Origin: an uncultured cyanobacterium
GTDB taxonomy: Bacteria; Cyanobacteriota; Cyanobacteriia; Pseudanabaenales; Pseudanabaenaceae
Length of the DNA: 64,000 nt
Direction: 5' to 3'
Assembly: GCA_963703315.1 (NCBI GenBank)
Contig: OY969811.1
Coordinates: forward strand, 3,040,001 to 3,104,000
Position numbers and translations under genes: made by a program. The notes beneath the pieces were generated by a model that had not been told where the DNA came from, ran no database searches, and worked only from the letters and a program-made list of their open reading frames with translations. This document shows, piece after piece, positions 5,704 through 40,353 of the stretch (within the stretch, counting starts at the first letter, position 1; the number at the start of each line of letters is the position of its first letter).

Positions 5704-6273
5704 AAACTCCACATCTTCATAAATCTCAGATAAGCTAAGCTCGATGCCCAGTGATGACAATTTGATTTGATTCTCTAGTTGAGAATATTCTATCAATAAC
5801 CACTGATTAGCGCCCTGTTTGACGTAATGCTCAACATGAGGCTGGTTTTGCTCCACTAATAGATATTCCTGAAAGCTAGAAATTGTCCGATAATCAGCAA
5901 ATTTTTCACCACGATCATAGTTTTTAGTCGATTTCGATAGAACTTCAGCAATAAAAATTGGCTGTGTCACCGTATCTTTGCGTCCCTCTTGCAAGGCGAT
6001 CGGACGTGGTACAACCATCACATCAGGGTAAGTATGCACTTGGCGATCGGGAATCCACAGTCTCTGATCGGTCACAAATACCTGTAAGGGTTTACCCCGC
6101 AGCCCTAAACTAAGCAATACCGTCATTGAGCGAACTAATTCATTATGCGTAGGCGTGCCGCCAGTCATTTCTATAATCTCTCCTTGGCGATATTCATGAC
6201 GGTTAGTCGCTTCGAGTTCTAAAGCTAGATATTCTTCTGGTGTGAAGGTTTTAGCGGGAGTGGCAACGGTCAT
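5701..6273 (-). CDS. Uma2 family endonuclease
   Basis: TPEEYL...HEY..GEIIEMTGG, YPDVMVV, EVLSKST..YDRGEKF..Y. Confidence 0.92.
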   Translation of the reverse strand: MTVATPAKTFTPEEYLALELEATNRHEYRQGEIIEMTGGTPTHNELVRSMTVLLSLGLRGKPLQVFVTDQRLWIPDRQVHTYPDVMVVPRPIALQEGRKDTVTQPIFIAEVLSKSTKNYDRGEKFADYRTISSFQEYLLVEQNQPHVEHYVKQGANQWLLIEYSQLENQIKLSSLGIELSLSEIYEDVEF

Positions 6274-6462
6274 ATCTTCGCCTCCACAATTTAACTGTAG
6301 CAATCAGTTTATACTAAAGCTCAAAATCTGGCGGTAGCCAGATTTCAAAGTTAAGCATTATCGCAATTGTCACAAGTTGCTATCACGTTAAGATAATGAC
6401 TTTAGAATAGTCAGTGCTTTGCGCTGACTATTCTAAAGTCATTCTGGTTTTCCGCATTTGGG

Positions 6463-8757
6463 GTGCTAATGCAAGGTTTAAAGTTTTTTAAAGGATTTTT
6501 TCAAGTGCGTCATCTGGTGAAATTTGGCGCGATCGCCATGACCTCACTTTTGATAGTTCTATCACTGAGTGGACTATTTCCGCGATCGCTGGCTGCTCAA
6601 TCCACAGAAATCGCGATCGCCGTATCTGTCCCCCTAAGCGGTGATGGCGCAAGTGGTGGGCAGGAAATCGTCGATAGCGTCAAGTTATATATTGATGCGA
6701 CCAATCAGCAGGGCGGTATCAACGGTCGAAAAATAAAGCTATTACCTTTCGATGACAAAGGCAGTGCTGAAGCTGTGAAACAAGTTGCTCCTGAGATTGT
6801 TAAGAGTAATGCCCTAATTGTCTTGGGACATCGCTCCTCTGATGTATCGATCGCCGCAGGTAATATTTATCAAGAGGCAAAATTACCAGCAATTACTGGC
6901 ACTGCGAATAGTGAGCAAGTCACCAAAGATCGTCCTTACTATTTTCGGATGATCTATACCAATCCTGCCCTTGCCAAAACTCTATCGCTTTATGCACAGC
7001 AGGTTTTGCAGTTCAAAACCGCTAGCATTATTTACGACAGTGCCAGTAAAAATGAGCAGTCCCAATCGGAAGTGATTAAAGCTGCCTTTGAGACTAATGG
7101 CAATGGCAAAATTCAGCGTACTTGGGCGATCGCGGCTGACCCGAATAATCGTAAACAATCGATCCAGCAAATTGTTAATGAATTGGCGGCTGAACCTGAA
7201 GCGGGAATTATCTTTTTGACCTTGACTAAAGAAGATGTCGCTGAAGATTTACTGGTCGCGCTCAAACAAAAGGGAATTAAAAATCCGATCTTAGGCGAAC
7301 AAGCTTTAGGAAGAGAATCCTTTGCCAAGCGGTTTGAGAAATATGATGAAGAGAAGAATAACATTGGATTCTTTACCGATGGAATGTATGTGCCATTACC
7401 GATCTTGTTTGATAGTGCGGGTGCTGATGCTCAGGACTTTCTTGCCGCATATCAAAAAGCCTATGGCAAACCTCCCTCTTACTTAGGAGCTAAATTCTAT
7501 GAAGCCGCGATCGCCGCAGTCGATGCGATTCGGAAAGCTAATCCGAAATTAACTGATTTAAAGGGCGATCGCGAACAGGTACGTGCTGAACTTGATAAGC
7601 TCAACAATCGCAAAGTGGGACTGCGGGGTTTAACGGGTCTACTCTATTTCAATGCCAATCGCAACAGCGATCAGCCTGTCCGTCTAGCCCAGTTTGAAAA
7701 TCATCGTCTGGTTTCGGCGGCTCAACAGTTCACACCCGTAACTACGCCTGAACGTTTGGATTTAGCAAAGGAAACTCAAGCAGGCAGTATCGTCCAATCT
7801 GGCACACAGTATTTCTGGCGACAGCGTGTGGTTTACGCAGGGTTGGATATCAATAAACTGAATCGCATTGATAAAGGTAGCTATACGGCAGACTTTTATG
7901 TGTGGTTCCGCTATAACGGCAATGACCAACCGACAGAAATTCAATTTCCTGAAGCTGTTAGCAACAGCGTTAATCCCAATGCACCAGTATTTGATGCCAA
8001 AGCACCGATCAAAGCCGAATTGGTGAATGGATTGAACTATCGTCTCTATCGAGTACGTGGTGAGTTTCGGAATTCCTTCGACTTTCGCGACTATCCCTTT
8101 GACTCACAACGTTTAATCCTGCGCTTTGACAATCCTAATCTCTCAACGGAAAGATTGATCTATGCGATCGATACGATTGGACTAAAATTGCCGAAACCCG
8201 AAGCTCTAGAGCGTCTTCCATTTCAAGGGCTACAACTCTGGAATTTTAAAGATATTACCTACTTCCAAGATTCTTCAAGGGTTACTTCTACCCAAGGTGA
8301 TCCCGATCTATTTCAGTCCAATGCTCAAATTGAGTACCCCGGACTCAGTGTACGGATGTCCTTTCAGCGCAAAACTTTAGTGTTTTTGTCCAAGAATCTA
8401 CTGCCCCTGATTCTACTTTCACTATTAACTTACTGCTGCCTATTTTTCCCTTACACAATGTTTGTGCCACGCACGATGGCTCCCGCATCAGCATTGCTAT
8501 CGGGAATTGTGTTATTGCTTTCTTTTAACAATCAATTACCAGAAGTTGGCTACACAGTTGCCCTAGAATATGTGTTTTATGTCTATTTCAGTTTGTGTTT
8601 GCTACCAATTTTAGTAACGGTGATTGGCACAAAATTAGATAAAGATGGACATAAGAACGCATTCCGTATTCTGAATATTGGCTCATGGATTCTCTATCCT
8701 GCGATTATGCTTACCACGATCGCTAGTTATGCGATCGCCTACGGTAGCCGCCTTTAA
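6463..8757 (+). CDS. LIV-type periplasmic binding domain fused to a pentameric ligand-gated ion channel (Pro-loop) domain
   Basis: Signal-like N-terminus; PLSG...N..GGINGRKI...DD binding-protein motif; ADFYVWFR, DFRDYPFDSQ; four C-terminal hydrophobic helices with LPEVGY. Confidence 0.8.
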   Translation: MLMQGLKFFKGFFQVRHLVKFGAIAMTSLLIVLSLSGLFPRSLAAQSTEIAIAVSVPLSGDGASGGQEIVDSVKLYIDATNQQGGINGRKIKLLPFDDKGSAEAVKQVAPEIVKSNALIVLGHRSSDVSIAAGNIYQEAKLPAITGTANSEQVTKDRPYYFRMIYTNPALAKTLSLYAQQVLQFKTASIIYDSASKNEQSQSEVIKAAFETNGNGKIQRTWAIAADPNNRKQSIQQIVNELAAEPEAGIIFLTLTKEDVAEDLLVALKQKGIKNPILGEQALGRESFAKRFEKYDEEKNNIGFFTDGMYVPLPILFDSAGADAQDFLAAYQKAYGKPPSYLGAKFYEAAIAAVDAIRKANPKLTDLKGDREQVRAELDKLNNRKVGLRGLTGLLYFNANRNSDQPVRLAQFENHRLVSAAQQFTPVTTPERLDLAKETQAGSIVQSGTQYFWRQRVVYAGLDINKLNRIDKGSYTADFYVWFRYNGNDQPTEIQFPEAVSNSVNPNAPVFDAKAPIKAELVNGLNYRLYRVRGEFRNSFDFRDYPFDSQRLILRFDNPNLSTERLIYAIDTIGLKLPKPEALERLPFQGLQLWNFKDITYFQDSSRVTSTQGDPDLFQSNAQIEYPGLSVRMSFQRKTLVFLSKNLLPLILLSLLTYCCLFFPYTMFVPRTMAPASALLSGIVLLLSFNNQLPEVGYTVALEYVFYVYFSLCLLPILVTVIGTKLDKDGHKNAFRILNIGSWILYPAIMLTTIASYAIAYGSRL

Positions 8758-18551: not shown

Positions 18552-18734
18552 GTAGGGGCTTAGCATTTGCGCCACAATTTTTAAACCCATTACAGAAATT
18601 CCGATCCGCAAATGCTAAGCCCTCTGTGCTTTTACAGACAATTTACCCCTGCGTTGCGAGGTTTTGGGCAGAGCATTCCCAAAGAAAAACTATCTAAAAA
18701 TTGATAAATTTACGCGGGAATGCTTTGCCCCTAC
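18552..18734. repeat. GTAG-type REP/REPIN doublet, unoccupied
   Basis: GTAGGGGC...GCCCCTAC termini and two internal hairpins; inverted homolog of 36308-36482. Confidence 0.85.
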
Positions 18735-33041: not shown

Positions 33042-34121
33042 ATGCAACTCGTCGCGCTTCAGAACTTACTAGATAACACCTCATTTGCGATCCTTTTTAC
33101 GACTATGCTCGTTTTTTGGATTCATGTCGCATTTCCGACTTTGCCCTATCTGCGATCGCTAGGAAATGCAGGCATGGCGATCGCCAATCTTTGTATTGCT
33201 GCATTACTGGGAGCGCGTTGGATTGATGCAGGCTATTTCCCACTCAGCAATCTTTACGAATCACTATTTTTCTTGGCATGGGGCATTACGACCATGCACC
33301 TTGTGGTTGATCGCATTGGCAATAAGAGCGCTAACGATACTGCCAAACGCTTGATTGGGGCATTTACTTCACCGATGGCAATGGGAATCACTGCCTTTGC
33401 AGCTTTAGCTTTACCTTTAGAGATGCAGTTGTCAGAGCCATTAGTCCCTGCTCTGAAGTCCAACTGGCTAATGATGCACGTTACGGTGATGCTGCTGAGC
33501 TATGCTGCTTTGATGACAGGCAGTATTTTAGCGATCGCCTTTTTGATTGTTACTCGCGGTCAAGAAGTCGTTTTACAGGGCAGTTCCTTCGGTACAAATC
33601 TTCGCAGTGTGAAGGACACAAAACATTCTAATTCACAATCTAATCCTGAGACTTTTGCTGCATTTGCCGTTGAAGGTATGGGCAGTGTTTTAAGTGCAGC
33701 TAATTTACCATCGGTAAATACGGCAGCAAATATGTCAGCAAATACAGCTACATTAGTTTCTGAAAATATTACCCAGACAAAACCGCTATCTTTGCGTCGT
33801 CTTACCCTTGGCGAGACTTTGGACAATCTCAGTTATCGGGCGATCGGGCTAGGTTTTCCGCTACTGACGATCGGTATCATCGCTGGGGGGGTATGGGCAA
33901 ATGAAGCATGGGGTTCGTATTGGAGTTGGGATCCTAAGGAAACGTGGTCTTTAATTACATGGTTAGTATTTGCAGCTTATTTACATACGCGCATTACCAA
34001 AGGTTGGCAGGGACGTAAGCCTGCAATTTTAGCAAGTGTGGGCTTATTAGTAGTGTGGACTTGCTATCTCGGTGTAAACCTGCTCGGTAAAGGTTTGCAT
34101 AGTTATGGCTGGTTCCTCTAG
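33042..34121 (+). CDS. ccsA: Cytochrome c biogenesis protein CcsA (CcsB/Ycf5 type)
   Basis: [18 protein letters not shown] (WWD domain), WLMMHV. Confidence 0.96.
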
Positions 34122-34224
34122 TTCAACCAAAGCTTCGCAAATCCCGTAAAAGCAAAAGGTGGCGCAATGCGCCACCTTTTGCTTTGCTATACAAGAGATT
34201 TTTTAGCGCGAAGCGCTATATTTT

Positions 34225-34869
34225 CTAGCGATCGCTTAACTCTTGTTGTAGTTTAGGCAGACTCTCTAATTCAAATACAGTGATTTGTCCAGAATTAGCG
34301 CCCCCCCTGCCATTTTGAAGTAACTCCACCCAATAGCCATATTTTTTACCTTGACGGACTTCCCCTTGCAAAGCCCACAGAATTGCGGAAGCGTTCTTGC
34401 TGCGCGATCGCTGCACCATTGCCGCAGTGGGATAGGCATACACCCGTTTAGCAGTAGCATAATCGCGCATTACTTCAGGACCATAAATAGAACGTAATGA
34501 CTCTTCTAGACGCGATCGCGTGACACCATTGACGATATCCACAAATCTAATCTGCTCACTTCTAATCAAGTTAGCATCGCTACTCTTGATGGTAGCTATT
34601 CCTGGTAGCACGACACTGGCTTGAAATTGAAAGCGTCTTGATGGCGTATCACTTTTTTTTACCAACAGTCTTTCACCTGCTTCTGGACGTAAGGCAGGAT
34701 TGGTTCTAATCCAATCGATAACTTGATCGGGCGTTTGACCGGGTAAAGCGATCGCCGATGGGATCGTTTGCCATGCAGTCGGCACAGCAATGCTTAATAT
34801 TTGCGTCAAAAGCGTTGTAGCGATCGCCGTTTTCACATGGTTAATGTTTGCGCTCTTAAAGCAATTCAT
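34225..34869 (-). CDS. Exported hypothetical protein
   Basis: 214-aa ORF, signal-like N-terminus, ALPGQ. Confidence 0.7.
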   Translation of the reverse strand: MNCFKSANINHVKTAIATTLLTQILSIAVPTAWQTIPSAIALPGQTPDQVIDWIRTNPALRPEAGERLLVKKSDTPSRRFQFQASVVLPGIATIKSSDANLIRSEQIRFVDIVNGVTRSRLEESLRSIYGPEVMRDYATAKRVYAYPTAAMVQRSRSKNASAILWALQGEVRQGKKYGYWVELLQNGRGGANSGQITVFELESLPKLQQELSDR

Positions 34870-35068
34870 GAGATTCCTCTACACCAATTAAATCCTAGTA
34901 GACAAATTTAGCTGGCAAATAATGGCTGACAGAATATCATGGACTGGCGTAATTGCAATGACTTTTTCAGTCTTTTTCCGATATTTTTAGGACATCTGTC
35001 GCCGTAGTGTCATTTTTTATTCGTACCCATAGAATAGAACTGTAGATACTGTCTTGAGTACCAAAAAG

Positions 35069-36055
35069 TCAAGAGGGAATTTGAACAAAATTTGGGTCGA
35101 AAGAACGCTGAGACTTGAGAACGCCAAAGACCTGTCGTAACAGCTTGTGCATGACAGCCCCAATGACAGACATTTTGGACTTACCCTTAGCCGTAAGGCG
35201 AGCGCAGAAAGCAGCAATCGGCAAATTATAACGACGGGCAACAATCGCAGGCATAAACAAAGCTTTACGCAAACGCGAATTACCAATTTTAGATAAACGT
35301 GGCTTACCATGAATCGAAGAACCAGATGAGAACTCACGGGGAGTTAAACCCGCAAAAGCTGCCAGTTGATCAGCAGTATCAAAGGCAGAAATATCCCGAA
35401 TTTCCGCCAGTAATATAGTTGCGGTCAGTTCAGCAATACCAGGAATAGAAGTCAACAAATCCCGTTGAGATTTCAAATGAGGGTGTTGATCAAAGTGCTG
35501 ACGGATCAATTTTTTGGTCATCTCAATTTGCTCTTTGAGAAAATCAATGTGAGCATTAATTGCCTCAACCAAAATTGGATCAGCCGTAGCAAGACGATTC
35601 TGCTCTTGCTGCTGCATAGCAGTTAAGCTATCTAAACGATGCACCAATGCTTGTAGTTGCTCAATTTCTAATGCTGGTGGTGTCCAAAGAGCAGGTTTTA
35701 AGGCTGCACAAAATCTAGCAATGACTTTAGCATCAGCACGGTCAGTCTTTGTACGACTTAACTCACTCTTGCCAAAGGCTTTGGGACGGGATGGATTAAC
35801 AATACTTACTTTGTATCCTGCCTCTACTAAGAATCTAGCTAACCCATTGCCGTAAGTGCTGGTAGCTTCCATACAACTATGCAAGTTTGTCACATTTTGA
35901 AGGTTTAGCCATTCTTGTAATTCAGCAAATCCTTCAGGATTGTTGGCAAATACTTTGCTCTTGATTTTGGCGTTGCCTTGGATTAGAGCAACATCAAATT
36001 TGGCTTTGCTGATATCTATTCCTAAAACATCATATACTTCATTGTTATTGTTCAT
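35069..36055 (-). CDS. IS110 DEDD recombinase
   Basis: GIDISK, MEATS, KTDRAD, SIPGI, AFAGLTP..FSSGSS. Confidence 0.96.
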   Translation of the reverse strand: MNNNNEVYDVLGIDISKAKFDVALIQGNAKIKSKVFANNPEGFAELQEWLNLQNVTNLHSCMEATSTYGNGLARFLVEAGYKVSIVNPSRPKAFGKSELSRTKTDRADAKVIARFCAALKPALWTPPALEIEQLQALVHRLDSLTAMQQQEQNRLATADPILVEAINAHIDFLKEQIEMTKKLIRQHFDQHPHLKSQRDLLTSIPGIAELTATILLAEIRDISAFDTADQLAAFAGLTPREFSSGSSIHGKPRLSKIGNSRLRKALFMPAIVARRYNLPIAAFCARLTAKGKSKMSVIGAVMHKLLRQVFGVLKSQRSFDPNFVQIPS

Positions 36056-36091
36056 TGGGGGCAGTCCTCTTGCTAGATTTGTCCATCAAGC

Positions 36092-36300
36092 AATCAGTGG
36101 TATTGAACTATCCTTGTGAATGCAGGTTTACCCGTTGGGCGACCTCTGATACTGTCCAGTCTTTACTTGTTTCCACTGTTTAAGCAGAGACGACTCTATC
36201 TACAAAACGGGCTTGGTGTCCCTAGGGGCAGATCGAGTTTATCTCTGCTTTTGCTTTTTCGGATTGTAGTAAAGATTTTATCCTTTACTTTTCCTCCTAG
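36092..36300 (-). ncRNA. Predicted bridge RNA of IS110 copy L
   Basis: Mirror of copy R; guides at 36224-32, 36200-04, 36148-55, 36113-17; ends approximate. Confidence 0.8.
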
Positions 36301-36307
36301 ATACAAG

Positions 36308-36482
36308 GGGCAGAGCATTCCCGCAGGAATTTATACATTTTTAGATAATCCTCCTTTGGGAATGCTCTGCCCAAAACCTCGCAACGCAGGGAAAAATTGT
36401 CTGTAAAAGCATAAAGGGCAGAGCATTTGCGGAACGAGATTTGTGTGATGGGTTTTCAAATTGTGGCGCAAATGCTCTGCCC
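36308..36482. repeat. REP/REPIN doublet, occupied at both ends by IS110
   Basis: Homologous to reverse complement of 18552-18734; removing both IS restores GTAGGGGC...GCCCCTAC. Confidence 0.9.
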
Positions 36483-36489
36483 CTTGTAT

Positions 36490-36698
36490 CTAGGAGGAAA
36501 AGTAAAGGATAAAATCTTTACTACAATCCGAAAAAGCAAAAGCAGAGATAAACTCGATCTGCCCCTAGGGACACCAAGCCCGTTTTGTAGATAGAGTCGT
36601 CTCTGCTTAAACAGTGGAAACAAGTAAAGACTGGACAGTATCAGAGGTCGCCCAACGGGTAAACCTGCATTCACAAGGATAGTTCAATACCACTGATT
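36490..36698 (+). ncRNA. Predicted bridge RNA of IS110 copy R
   Basis: 5' hairpin, target loop (TCTGCCCCT 36558-66, TGTAG 36586-90), donor loop (ACAGTATC 36635-42, ACAAG 36673-77); ends approximate. Confidence 0.82.
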
Positions 36699-36735
36699 GC
36701 TTGATGGACAAATCTAGCAAGAGGACTGCCCCCCA

Positions 36736-37722
36736 ATGAACAATAACAATGAAGTATATGATGTTTTAGGAATAGATATCAGCAAAGCCAAATTTGATGT
36801 TGCTCTAATCCAAGGCAACGCCAAAATCAAGAGCAAAGTATTTGCCAACAATCCTGAAGGATTTGCTGAATTACAAGAATGGCTAAACCTTCAAAATGTG
36901 ACAAACTTGCATAGTTGTATGGAAGCTACCAGCACTTACGGCAATGGGTTAGCTAGATTCTTAGTAGAGGCAGGATACAAAGTAAGTATTGTTAATCCAT
37001 CCCGTCCCAAAGCCTTTGGCAAGAGTGAGTTAAGTCGTACAAAGACTGACCGTGCTGATGCTAAAGTCATTGCTAGATTTTGTGCAGCCTTAAAACCTGC
37101 TCTTTGGACACCACCAGCATTAGAAATTGAGCAACTACAAGCATTGGTGCATCGTTTAGATAGCTTAACTGCTATGCAGCAGCAAGAGCAGAATCGTCTT
37201 GCTACGGCTGATCCAATTTTGGTTGAGGCAATTAATGCTCACATTGATTTTCTCAAAGAGCAAATTGAGATGACCAAAAAATTGATCCGTCAGCACTTTG
37301 ATCAACACCCTCATTTGAAATCTCAACGGGATTTGTTGACTTCTATTCCTGGTATTGCTGAACTGACCGCAACTATATTACTGGCGGAAATTCGGGATAT
37401 TTCTGCCTTTGATACTGCTGATCAACTGGCAGCTTTTGCGGGTTTAACTCCCCGTGAGTTCTCATCTGGTTCTTCGATTCATGGTAAGCCACGTTTATCT
37501 AAAATTGGTAATTCGCGTTTGCGTAAAGCTTTGTTTATGCCTGCGATTGTTGCCCGTCGTTATAATTTGCCGATTGCTGCTTTCTGCGCTCGCCTTACGG
37601 CTAAGGGTAAGTCCAAAATGTCTGTCATTGGGGCTGTCATGCACAAGCTGTTACGACAGGTCTTTGGCGTTCTCAAGTCTCAGCGTTCTTTCGACCCAAA
37701 TTTTGTTCAAATTCCCTCTTGA
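36736..37722 (+). CDS. IS110 DEDD recombinase
   Basis: Protein identical to 35069-36055. Confidence 0.96.
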   Translation: MNNNNEVYDVLGIDISKAKFDVALIQGNAKIKSKVFANNPEGFAELQEWLNLQNVTNLHSCMEATSTYGNGLARFLVEAGYKVSIVNPSRPKAFGKSELSRTKTDRADAKVIARFCAALKPALWTPPALEIEQLQALVHRLDSLTAMQQQEQNRLATADPILVEAINAHIDFLKEQIEMTKKLIRQHFDQHPHLKSQRDLLTSIPGIAELTATILLAEIRDISAFDTADQLAAFAGLTPREFSSGSSIHGKPRLSKIGNSRLRKALFMPAIVARRYNLPIAAFCARLTAKGKSKMSVIGAVMHKLLRQVFGVLKSQRSFDPNFVQIPS

Positions 37723-37864
37723 CTTTTTGGTACTCAAGACAGTATCTACGTTTTTGTTGCGATAAATCACTGATGGTGCAATAGGTAAGCTTTCGTGAAA
37801 ATGCTTTGATAGTAAGGACTTGCAGCTTTATTCCAAAGAAATCAAAAAAAACATGCTCAAGGTA

Positions 37865-37893
37865 TTGACAAACCTTTTGTAAATCTCCATAAT
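37865..37893 (+). promoter_or_regulatory. Sigma70-type promoter of tRNA-Asp
   Basis: TTGACA-N17-CATAAT. Confidence 0.75.
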
Positions 37894-37982
37894 AAGGAGC
37901 GCTTAAATAAAGAAACGCAAAAACCGCGCTGCAAACCAGTTGGTAGCAAGCAATTCTTTAAATAAAGTTTAAGCAAAAATTT

Positions 37983-38056
37983 GGGTTCGTAGTTCAATTG
38001 GTTAGAGCACCGCCCTGTCACGGCGGAAGTTGCGGGTTCGAGCCCCGTCGAACCCG
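37983..38056 (+). tRNA. trnD: tRNA-Asp(GTC)
   Basis: GGGTTCG/CGAACCC acceptor stem, CCGCC-CT-GTC-AC-GGCGG anticodon arm, GTTCGAG T loop; CCA not encoded. Confidence 0.97.
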
Positions 38057-38083
38057 TTCTAGATAAGAATTTTAATAAGAATT

Positions 38084-39154: not shown

Positions 39155-39372
39155 AATTGCTCGCGTTGCCCATAACTAAAATGATGGTGGCAAACTGAAT
39201 TTGGCAAATACAATCTTGAAATTCAGTTCGAGATACTTTAGACTTTGCAACATTTCTAACCAAAATATTAGCTTAATCTGTATGGATCTGCGATTTGCTA
39301 AGGAATCAGATTTTTTGTGGCGCGGCTGCGCCGCGCCACAAAAAATCTGATTCCTTATTTTCCTTAATCTAA

Positions 39373-40353
39373 TCAGGAATGTAATGGTAGTACAGCCAGA
39401 GGTAAAAGTGCAAAGCCAATCCAAAGTAAAGCCCACCAAGAAAATTGGGGTAATGGTTCGGGTTCCGCAAGTAAGAAATTAATACGTTCTTCGAGGCGAT
39501 CGCTCGGATTGGTGGAACCAAAGGCAGCCGCAAAGGTTTCATTCTCATTGATATTGCTTATGGTCATATTGCTGCTAACCATTGCAAGTAAAGACTCGGC
39601 AATTAATAAACCATCAGCATAGTTCGCCGCCCAGCGATCGGCACGAAGTTCTCGTAATAGTAGCAGTTCTTCCCATAGTGCTTCGGTATTGGGCAACCAA
39701 GGCATGATTTGACGCAAGCAGCTTAGCCAGAAAAACCAAAAAGTATCGCGATAATGGGCATGGGCGCGTTCATGGAGTAGGACAGCTTCGAGGTGTGGGG
39801 CATCAAGGGTATCGAGTAACCCTTGACTCACAAAAAGCTGCGATCGCCAAAAGCCGATTTGCGCTGCAAATAGCATCGGGATATTTAGCAACTGCACAGG
39901 ATGATCAATGCTTAGGAACCCAATTGTTTGTGGCGCGGTGCAGCCGCGCCACAAACAATCGGGTTCCTTCACAACTAAACTTTGTAACTTTTGTAAAGAT
40001 TGCCAGCCATTCCATACCAGTTGCACTGCACGCAAAATGCTGTAAATCAAAAATATCAGAGCGATCGCATAGCTCAGTCGTCCAGCTTGCAAACCAATCA
40101 TTTGTCCATCGGCTCCCATGCAAAGCACCGCGATCGCCGTCATCACGACTAGCAATGGGGGCAACACGAAACATACTAATGCTTTGTGCCAACGCCTTTG
40201 CCAAGAACTTGACCCTGAATTTTGATGACTTTGATTTTGATGATTTTGCCAGCCATAACGCAATCCCCACGCAAGACAGAGGGAGCCGAGCAGCATCACA
40301 GAATGTATCGACAAAGAATGTATAGGGGAAAAATATACAGAAGAAAAGGACAT
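39373..40353 (-). CDS. M56 family (BlaR1-like) metallopeptidase
   Basis: AVLLHERAH, RELRAD; downstream of the BlaI-type repressor; start uncertain. Confidence 0.88.
   Translation of the reverse strand: MSFSSVYFSPIHSLSIHSVMLLGSLCLAWGLRYGWQNHQNQSHQNSGSSSWQRRWHKALVCFVLPPLLVVMTAIAVLCMGADGQMIGLQAGRLSYAIALIFLIYSILRAVQLVWNGWQSLQKLQSLVVKEPDCLWRGCTAPQTIGFLSIDHPVQLLNIPMLFAAQIGFWRSQLFVSQGLLDTLDAPHLEAVLLHERAHAHYRDTFWFFWLSCLRQIMPWLPNTEALWEELLLLRELRADRWAANYADGLLIAESLLAMVSSNMTISNINENETFAAAFGSTNPSDRLEERINFLLAEPEPLPQFSWWALLWIGFALLPLAVLPLHS

Follow-up and report, generated by a model that had tools for sequence, protein, structure and literature searches.

Within the window, the 64,000-nucleotide stretch of DNA analysed here, two copies of one IS110 element stand head to head at positions 35044-37747. 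Copy L (35044-36305, minus strand) is 1,262 bp long and carries the C5 allele, and copy R (36485-37747, plus strand) is 1,263 bp long and carries the C6 allele. The sole difference between them is C5 versus C6 in a homopolymer run before the ATG. The resulting near-perfect 1.26-kb inverted repeat is far beyond chance. Between the copies lies a spacer (36306-36484) of 179 bp including both CT cores, or 175 bp between the cores. These coordinates and the near-identity of the arms confirm an earlier sequence-only reading, which had described two divergent IS110 copies as inverted repeats of about 1.26 kb around a 175-bp REP. The left neighbour is a gene on the minus strand (34225-34869) that encodes 214 aa with no Pfam or NCBIfam match and is adjacent to tRNA-Asp in relatives. 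The right neighbour is tRNA-Asp(GTC) (37982-38057, plus strand), which starts 235 bp after copy R, at the distance given earlier. A predicted sigma-70-like promoter (11/12; 37865-37893, plus strand) precedes the tRNA gene outside the IS pair, and its -35 region is also visible in relatives. Given that this promoter-like site is intact and lies beyond the IS, an effect of the pair on tRNA-Asp, as its position upstream might imply, is not borne out. The flanks of the pair are unique, and they are natural neighbours of each other at 18 of the 19 relative loci examined.

Each copy contains an intact ORF for a bridge recombinase of 328 aa (35069-36055, minus strand, in copy L; 36736-37722, plus strand, in copy R), and the two proteins are identical. 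The product carries the domains PF01548 and PF02371 and scores 244.7 bits against NF033542 (cut-off 140). The catalytic residues of IS621 (RuvC-like DEDD plus Tnp serine), listed as D11, E60, D102, D105, and S241 in the available text of PMC11208158, have their counterparts here in D14, E63, D105, D108, and S244. The best matches in a structural database were ISCro4 (E 3.5e-76) and IS621 (E 7e-73). The element has 251 bp before the ATG and 25 bp after the stop codon, and its ends are not reverse complements and have no terminal inverted repeats. A long left end and a short right end define the IS110 group in the available portion of PMC12288879. Judged from its sequence, the element is an IS621-like member of the IS110 group of the IS110 family.

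The non-coding left end of copy R (36485-36735, plus strand) is predicted to encode a bridge RNA, in which we located four guides by sequence match, all on the plus strand: a left target guide (36558-36566, 9 nt), a right target guide (36587-36590, 4 nt), a left donor guide (36635-36642, 8 nt), and a right donor guide (36673-36677, 5 nt). The guides stand in the order expected for an IS621-type bridge RNA, a layout known from PMC11208160 (section 6) and PMC11208158 as far as these texts were available. By identity with copy R, the left end of copy L (36056-36305, minus strand) mirrors this region and its predicted bridge RNA. Both target guides sit on opposite sides of one predicted stem-loop. 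The donor guides flank a stem in single-sequence folds, for which the minimum-energy and centroid structures disagree. The target guide matches both REP ends of the doublet described below. The donor core may resemble that of IS621, a likeness that the paper's text does not confirm (0 occurrences). In the short right end of copy R (37719-37747, plus strand), a -35-like TTGACT (37719-37724) is followed after 18 nt by a -10-like hexamer whose last base, in the computed junction, comes from the left end only upon circularisation. This arrangement would be compatible with promoter activity at the junction of a circular form. An antisense promoter-like site inside each copy reaches only 9/12, which is chance level (5 found versus 6.7 expected).

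The spacer is a REP doublet (36306-36484) composed of hairpin A (36308-36372), a linker, and hairpin B (36415-36482). It folds as two separate hairpins (z -6.7). Its termini form a perfect inverted repeat of 14 bp, and when the whole doublet is compared with its reverse complement, 80 of 179 positions agree. The description of the doublet as palindromic therefore holds for the terminal 14 bp but not for the whole, which has a non-repeated centre of 151 bp. With such a centre, the cruciform formation proposed earlier is unlikely. Each hairpin has a long variable loop and a length of about 67 bp, above the unit size of 20 to 40 bp given for REPs. In unfilled doublets, a GTAG tag stands beside the palindrome, with the tags outside. 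One such doublet of the same family lies in the window at 18552-18734, departs from the guide by one mismatch at one end and by two at the other, and serves as a natural comparator. The genome holds 19 two-ended doublets of this family. A RAYT gene of this genome (G000, 348969-349250; PF01797; NF047646 at 85.3 bits, cut-off 80) carries a REP doublet on each side, and extragenic placement is seen both at the pair locus and at the RAYT locus. By their tag and their link to the RAYT, the repeats are REP-like, and they are larger than classical REPs.

Copy L occupies the CT core of an A-type (GGGA) REP end, and copy R occupies the CT core of a B-type (GCAA) REP end. Both junctions show ATGCTCTGCCCCT, then the IS, then AC, just as the claim of insertion at the CT core of a REP terminus had it. 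Outside copy L, the remnant of the A-type end (35014-35043, minus strand) consists of AC and the conserved flank extension; it is identical to an unfilled A-type flank at 24 of 30 positions and to the B-type at no more than 16 of 30. Outside copy R, the corresponding remnant of the B-type end (37748-37777, plus strand) also consists of AC and the conserved flank extension, with 23 of 30 positions identical to unfilled B-type flanks and no more than 14 of 30 to the A-type. The two target ends face outward, in agreement with the proposal that the divergent orientation follows from target symmetry.

We located seven near-identical copies of the element in the genome, all of them (7/7) with a CT core followed by AC. 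Five copies stand at perfect REP ends, one at a REP end with one mismatch, and one at a non-REP site with two mismatches. The perfect 11-mer TCTGCCC-CT-AC occurs 10 times in the genome, each time as a REP end (10/10). In a census of 58 REP ends, from which two inner false ends were left out, the element occupied 5 of 10 perfect ends, 1 of 35 ends with one mismatch, and 0 of 13 ends with two mismatches. The doublet at 36306-36484 is the only one of the 19 in which both ends are perfect to the guide, and given that 5 of 10 perfect ends are occupied, the chance that both of its ends are filled is 5/10 x 4/9 = 0.22. Because both ends are perfect, the double filling of this doublet needs no special mechanism; the match alone is enough to explain it.

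The genome also contains a second head-to-head pair, within 2714.5-2718.0 kb of G000 and thus out of sight of the sequence-only reading, which has its own spacer and its own flanks. The spacers of the two pairs are identical at 140 of 179 aligned columns. The arms of the second pair differ as well (C5/C6, plus one SNP), there is only 5 bp of inner identity, and the mismatched end has been kept unconverted. Four of the seven copies thus stand in pairs. The sole insertion at a one-mismatch REP end adjoins a resident copy, while five perfect ends elsewhere are empty. The copy at 347314-348575 has a partner end with one mismatch that is empty. The probability of two doubly filled doublets among six REP insertions was 0.006 under uniform choice, 0.012 when ends were weighted by their mismatch class, 0.025 when the exact sequence of the left target was used, and 0.057 when the right-target extension was added; all of these values are post hoc with tiny n. 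Two pairs together exceed what target availability predicts, being somewhat unlikely on that basis.

We compared guides and targets over 23 distinct junctions and six guide variants. Each guide against its own target gave 29 mismatches in total compared to a shuffled mean of 51.4, with 0 of 100,000 shuffles as low; the junctions include kin that are not independent, and six rows come from G000. Eleven of the 23 junctions match their own guide perfectly, and 5 of the 23 differ at three or more of 7 positions. This covariation of guide and target in relatives, together with the four guides in the left end, supports the earlier claim that insertion is RNA guided. In G044, whose guide fits B-type ends, none of 10 examined sites was paired; three of them have a partner end, empty at 2 to 3 mismatches. 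For G044 and G063 together, paired sites numbered 0 of 13.

None of the genus's 47 other genomes contained the head-to-head pattern with spacers of 160 to 190 bp; 17 of the 47 hold the left end, and most are fragmented drafts. Across 400 other genomes of the phylum, a looser pattern matched in 19, with IS110 in 0 of these 19 loci (tblastn), and the pattern with short spacers matched in 0 of 401 genomes. A metagenome scan gave five matches. One of them, L090, is a candidate IS110 pair with another IS110 and another REP, and this contig is suggestive of the same arrangement. The other four were rejected: L088 is a fold-back-like palindrome without IS110 (158 of 176 positions mirrored), and L087, L089, and L091 contain an unrelated repeat. 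Also set aside was G002, in which two divergent copies separated by 4.1 kb are unrelated insertions, one truncated and one interrupted. With the whole structure as query, no match was found in E. coli genomes, and plasmids matched only in REP pieces. This REP was present in 0 of 18 orthologous intergenic regions of reference genomes, which yield no strain-level empty site there.

Contigs of public runs, with small-share runs left out, bear on whether the structure is real. X1 is possibly the source sample, and one of its contigs crosses the inner copy-L junction with no differences; the X1 contig at the outer junction extends 27 letters into the IS, below our 31-letter rule, and is not counted as bridging. 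Depth in X1 is about 71 over the IS versus 11.4 over the flank, although depth is not a copy number. In a contig from X3, 35043 is followed directly by 36306, with precisely copy L missing, so that the left end appears to be unoccupied in a related strain. The C6 allele is present in runs X2 and X5, and the X1 contig across the homopolymer run shows C5 only. The C5/C6 difference in this assembly may be a homopolymer sequencing error.

We consider it probable that two separate bridge-RNA-guided insertions into one doublet explain the pair. An IS621-like IS110 element would have multiplied recently in this genome, and its left-end bridge RNA would recognise TCTGCCC-CT-AC, which is the GTAG-tagged outer end of the RAYT-associated REP hairpin on the opposite strand. 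Because each doublet has one tagged end facing outward on either side, it offers two targets in opposite orientation. A circular copy inserting at one end would split that target only and leave the other intact, where a further, separate insertion would then produce the head-to-head pair. The 2.7-kb inverted repeat would probably be a functionless by-product. The circle intermediate, the junction promoter, copy-type multiplication, and a low excision rate are likely by analogy with published IS621 work. The literature offers a copy-and-paste model (10.64898/2026.08.31.748434, section 6) and describes insertion as favoured over excision (PMC13626964, section 11). Published IS621 work suggests that target immunity would be absent, IS110 is described as lacking it (10.64898/2026.08.14.744561, section 8), and a doublet with two matching ends that has been filled twice shows that no such immunity operates over 180 bp. 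The independence of the two insertions in time we only infer. Two insertions were also the preferred account of the sequence-only reading, and this account agrees with the difference between the arms (C5/C6, also between public runs) and with the apparently empty left end in X3. Against it stand the presence of two pairs (P 0.006 to 0.057), the one-mismatch insertion beside a resident copy while perfect ends elsewhere are empty, the 5 of 23 junctions in relatives that are off guide at three or more of 7 positions, and the chance that the C5/C6 difference is a sequencing error.

The same observations can be read in other ways. An assembly artefact, whether a mis-joined repeat or the fold-back named earlier as a possible refutation, would agree with the near-identical arms, the lack of the arrangement in the 47 other genomes of the genus, and the lack of a read or contig spanning the whole structure among the public-run contigs. 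It is nevertheless very improbable: neither the centre (80/179, compared to 158/176 in the fold-back-like L088) nor the flanks are mirrored, the flanks are unique with natural neighbours, each outer flank has the extension that belongs with its inner end type, the second pair has its own spacer and flanks, and X1 supplies both a contig over the inner copy-L junction and far greater depth over the IS than over the flank. Template switching at the inverted REP ends, which would have copied the first IS into the other end without transposase, has a 14-bp perfect inverted repeat available beside the first copy, but return to the template would depend on only 2 bp of outer identity. Given also the 5 bp of inner identity and unconverted mismatched end of the second pair, the differing arms, and the position of every junction exactly at the recombinase core, we regard this route as highly unlikely. 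Movement or inversion of IS-REP-IS as one composite unit is extremely unlikely, even though the genome holds two such units and the literature describes both IS110-cargo-IS110 units and half-match recombination. The two spacers differ, and each retains the ancestral orientation between flanks of its own that match it. The outer ends are both donor-left on opposite strands, so by geometry no canonical donor junction encloses the unit. Recombinase-driven inversion is predicted to leave a chromosomal right-end/left-end junction, and none of 48 genomes of the genus contained one. The earlier suggestion of composite mobilisation therefore finds no support. Nor does that of spacer inversion, since in both pairs end type and outer flank are still combined as in the ancestral state.

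A resident copy might also make insertion more frequent at the partner end, which lies 180 bp away. The copied-out circle and its recombinase-bridge RNA complex might, for instance, arise close to the target, or transcription from the resident copy might open the partner site. The pairing of four of seven copies, the P values of 0.01 to 0.06 for two pairs, the adjacency of the only mismatched REP insertion to a resident copy, and the candidate pair in L090 point in this direction, as does the repeated local insertion reported for IS110 loci (10.64898/2026.08.14.744561). However, local copying predicts identical arms, and the arms differ in both pairs. In addition, the copy at 347314-348575 has an empty one-mismatch partner end, none of the 13 sites in G044 and G063 is paired, significance fades once the right-target extension is included (0.057), and the antisense promoter-like sites are at chance level. 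The evidence for such assistance is weak, and we consider it unlikely. Equally doubtful is its broader form, the reverse of target immunity, in which a resident copy would promote insertion at the partner end and relax guide fidelity, making REP doublets nurseries of head-to-head pairs. If it were true, such pairs would be substrates for a recombinase-driven flip between the inner junction of one copy and the outer junction of the other. The product of this flip would be a chromosomal right-end/left-end junction that has both a full donor site and a live promoter, and it might be one way to the tandem IS110 arrays described in other work. Neighbour-assisted insertion, if it occurs, would bear on the growth of IS110 loci and on how bridge-recombinase tools act off target in the vicinity of an integrated copy. 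With two separate guided insertions, the explanation that we favour, the pair is a clean natural illustration of bridge-RNA targeting, in which guide changes follow REP variants and occupancy falls with mismatches. The close relatives with their six target guides form a small natural reprogramming series.

Insertion of IS110 elements in REPs has long been known; double filling of one doublet was not found in the literature searched. The element resembles IS621 of Escherichia coli and ISCro4 in its catalytic set, CT core, long left end with four guides, and short right end with a -35 box. Like the element described here, IS621 inserts at a REP edge (available text of PMC3184786, citing Choi 2003). 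The present element differs from IS621 and ISCro4 in its target guide, its REP family, and its cyanobacterial host, and the portions of the literature examined contain no doubly filled doublets for either of them. IS1594 of Anabaena is likewise a cyanobacterial IS110/IS492-family element in REP-like sequences; by its description in the available part of PMC3184786, its target repeat apparently differs, and that part mentions no paired arrangement. ISPpu9 and ISPpu10 of Pseudomonas putida also prefer inverted REP pairs, according to the available text of PMC12288879. For ISPpu10, whose target folds as a stem-loop, convergent pairs <200 bp apart make up 40.8% of targets, and in the authors' view this may increase the density of sites locally (10.64898/2026.03.19.712850, section 7). 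The available texts on these two elements report single insertions, composite IS-cargo-IS structures of >100 kb, and tandem arrays, rather than filling of both members of a pair, and the hairpins here, at about 67 bp with long variable loops, are unlike their targets. The expanded IS110 loci of Hu et al. (10.64898/2026.08.14.744561) share with this locus multiple copies by repeated local insertion and no target immunity. As far as that text was available, they involve tandem duplications and half-match cargo gain, whereas the copies here are canonical, full-match, and in opposite orientation (the inversions in its Fig. S5 may include such cases). Finally, the doublets share with GTAG REP dimers, or REPINs, the outward GTAG tag and the HH dimer form (available text of PMC3733652), and share with GTAG REP systems a RAYT gene flanked by repeats (available text of PMC2817692). 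Compared to GTAG REPs of 20 to 40 bp, the units here are longer, and each doublet joins two hairpin types into a heterodimer whose outer extensions are conserved.

The head-to-head IS110 pair is the expected outcome of known targeting rules, and it occurs twice in one genome (G000, a single 4.57-Mb contig with 7 copies of the element). In the window, copy L (35044-36305, minus strand) and copy R (36485-37747, plus strand) differ only in a C run ahead of the start codon (alleles C5 and C6) and encode an identical 328-aa IS110 transposase. Among proteins with solved structures its top relatives are ISCro4 and IS621, all five catalytic residues described for IS621 are kept, and its nearest relatives lie mostly in Pseudanabaena records. 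The density of HIP1, 1.8 per kb, marks the host as a cyanobacterium. The spacer between the copies measures 179 bp, both CT cores included, and consists of two unlike hairpins and a linker. The sequence-only reading had the coordinates and description of the copies right, and tRNA-Asp does start 235 bp past copy R; its palindrome label does not hold, since the hairpins differ and the perfect inverted repeat is just 14 bp at the spacer's ends. Another palindromic repeat family, with a GC-rich core and AT-rich arms, lies near the pair both inside and between genes (39296-39356, 39909-39969 and 34149-34185). The second pair (G000:C1:2714875-2717575) surrounds a 176-bp doublet, and its arms are distinguished by one SNP and the same C5/C6 run. 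One end there is a one-mismatch target; the SNP is confined to the copy at that end and lies two bases ahead of its left target guide.

Four guides lie in the left end of the element. The first matches 9 nt of the target, from its left side through the core, and the second (4 nt) is complementary to the core and right target; the third matches 8 nt at the right end of the element itself, and the fourth (5 nt) is complementary to the element's left end. Their order is the IS621 layout (PMC11208160 and PMC11208158), and the predicted fold places the two target guides on opposite sides of one stem-loop. Over 23 distinct junctions and six guide variants, with six rows from G000 and kin that are not independent, guides differed from their own targets at 29 positions, compared to 51.4 with shuffled guides, and 0 of 100,000 shuffles scored as low. 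The fit was perfect at 11 of the 23 junctions and at least three positions off at five. The four guides, and the way the guide follows the target, bear out the RNA-guided insertion proposed earlier.

REP doublets form a dispersed family in G000, with 58 tagged ends and 19 two-ended doublets counted after in-silico removal of the IS copies. Each doublet offers two outward-facing ends. All ten perfect 11-mers in the genome are REP ends, and occupancy was 5/10 for perfect, 1/35 for one-mismatch, and 0/13 for two-mismatch REP ends. The seventh copy occupies a non-REP site with two mismatches. Both mismatched insertion sites have an extended match to bases beside the right target guide, which fits the extension of the guide reported for IS621 (n = 2). 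A REP-associated tyrosine transposase (RAYT; G000 348969-349250) has a doublet on each side, matching the hallmark of RAYT-REP systems (PMC2817692), and GTAG tags outside are the commonest REP dimer type (PMC3733652). The doublet upstream of the RAYT has its outer end filled by one IS110 and the end adjoining the RAYT empty (G000:C1:347314-349520). A BIME-like array at G000:C1:3985040-3985760 repeats a 131-bp unit six times in tandem; every unit has a single A-type REP hairpin, and the flank is shared by all six. Another divergent pair (G000:C1:3887809-3891523) consists of identical 1.3-kb, putative DDE/IS701-like elements with a 401-aa ORF and 16-bp terminal inverted repeats, enclosing a TPR-like gene and REP-like hairpins.

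Of 19 relative loci examined, 18 have the left gene next to tRNA-Asp, with a gap of 250-853 bp in 17 anchored relatives compared to 596 bp here, copies subtracted. The window's REP was absent from 18/18 relative left gene-tRNA-Asp loci. This gap (window 34990-35043 and 37748-37860) is a hot spot, with various unrelated palindromic repeats in relatives L022-L029. For all 17 unfilled ends that have a close neighbour, the 30 outside bases predicted REP end type; at 4/4 ends of the two IS110 pairs, the flank is proper to the inner type, which argues against mis-joining. A fold-back artefact, the refutation anticipated earlier, is made unlikely by these flanks and by the natural neighbours in relatives. 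Contigs from four sequencing runs were compared over 33800-36515. Run X1 may be the source sample. One of its contigs spans the inner junction of copy L with no differences and another extends 27 bases into copy L across the outer junction; among the X1 pieces listed for this interval, none lies at the inner junction of copy R. X1 depth was approximately 71 over the IS and 11.4 over the flank. One contig of run X3 links 35043 to 36306, exactly copy L missing; its shorter side covers 76 letters, and it was placed at 90% likeness, a level at which other repeats can intrude. No other REP flank of G000 scores above 46 against those 76 flank bases, so the contig most likely represents a related strain's version of this locus in which the left end is unfilled.

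Both ends are perfect in only one of the 19 doublets, the window's; given that half of perfect ends are filled, the probability that both are filled is 0.22. In the relative G044, whose guide fits one end type only, paired sites numbered 0 of 10 examined, and the three partner ends found were all empty and two to three mismatches off. Recent studies describe copy-type excision of IS110 (10.64898/2026.08.31.748434), a circle junction promoter and a bias to insertion (PMC13626964), and an absence of target immunity (10.64898/2026.08.14.744561). By extension, this element would be excised by copying, a promoter would form at its circle junction, insertion would be favored over excision, and missing immunity would permit a second insertion beside the first. 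Two separate insertions, as the sequence-only reading proposed, are supported by arms that differ in both pairs and by the X3 contig, the likely empty left end. The unlike arms also count against local copying, as does the C6 allele in runs X2 and X5; the C5/C6 difference may be a homopolymer error of this assembly. Alternatively, a resident copy could promote filling of the partner end. For two pairs to arise among the six REP insertions under pure independence, the post hoc probability is 0.006 to 0.057, depending on site stratification, which points toward such assistance, yet we consider it improbable.

Given the 4/4 agreement of outer flanks with inner end type, both spacers stand uninverted in the assembly, and the spacer inversion suggested earlier was not seen. 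Homologous recombination could in principle invert the spacer, which would alter only non-coding sequence. A recombinase-driven flip would be expected to produce a chromosomal right-end/left-end junction, which was absent from all 48 genomes searched in the genus. With 151 bp of non-repeated sequence at the center, the structure is unlikely to extrude a cruciform. Movement as a composite unit finds no support: the two spacers share 140 of 179 columns, each in its own flanks, and the two outer ends are unable to form a canonical donor junction. The promoter-like site of tRNA-Asp is intact, outside the pair. Both neighbor genes are transcribed away from the pair, therefore little sense read-through is expected into either left end; since IS621 excision needs read-through (PMC13626964), the paired copies may be quiet.

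A metagenome contig scan for the head-to-head arrangement returned five matches. In L090, another IS110 (54-60% identity), carrying a matching guide of its own, fills one end of a 190-bp doublet that is also different; at the opposite end, where the contig ends, a second left end is represented by 68 identical bases. Further pattern searches of genus and phylum genomes, mostly drafts that break at repeats, found no pair outside G000. Contigs L087, L089, and L091 hold a repeat of approximately 185 bp whose inverted ends contain tandem 7-base units; it has no relation to IS110. In the relative G002 (L030:1304-2150, 6075-8485), one IS110 is truncated, lacks part of its target-binding loop, and is joined to a REP hairpin; another is interrupted by a 1.1-kb, putative IS630-like element with two ORFs. 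In several relatives with a different guide (L064, L053, L067, L078, and L085), another GTAG-tagged repeat follows 15-30 bases past the IS right end, so a different REP family is targeted there.

We found no description of double filling of one REP doublet in the literature, subscription papers and preprint supplements (notably Fig. S5 of 10.64898/2026.08.14.744561) aside. IS110 elements in REPs have long been known, including IS621 and IS1594 of Anabaena (PMC3184786) and ISPpu9 (PMC12288879), and the targets of ISPpu10 are frequently convergent pairs <200 bp apart (10.64898/2026.03.19.712850). The window's IS110 belongs to this already known kind of REP-targeting elements.
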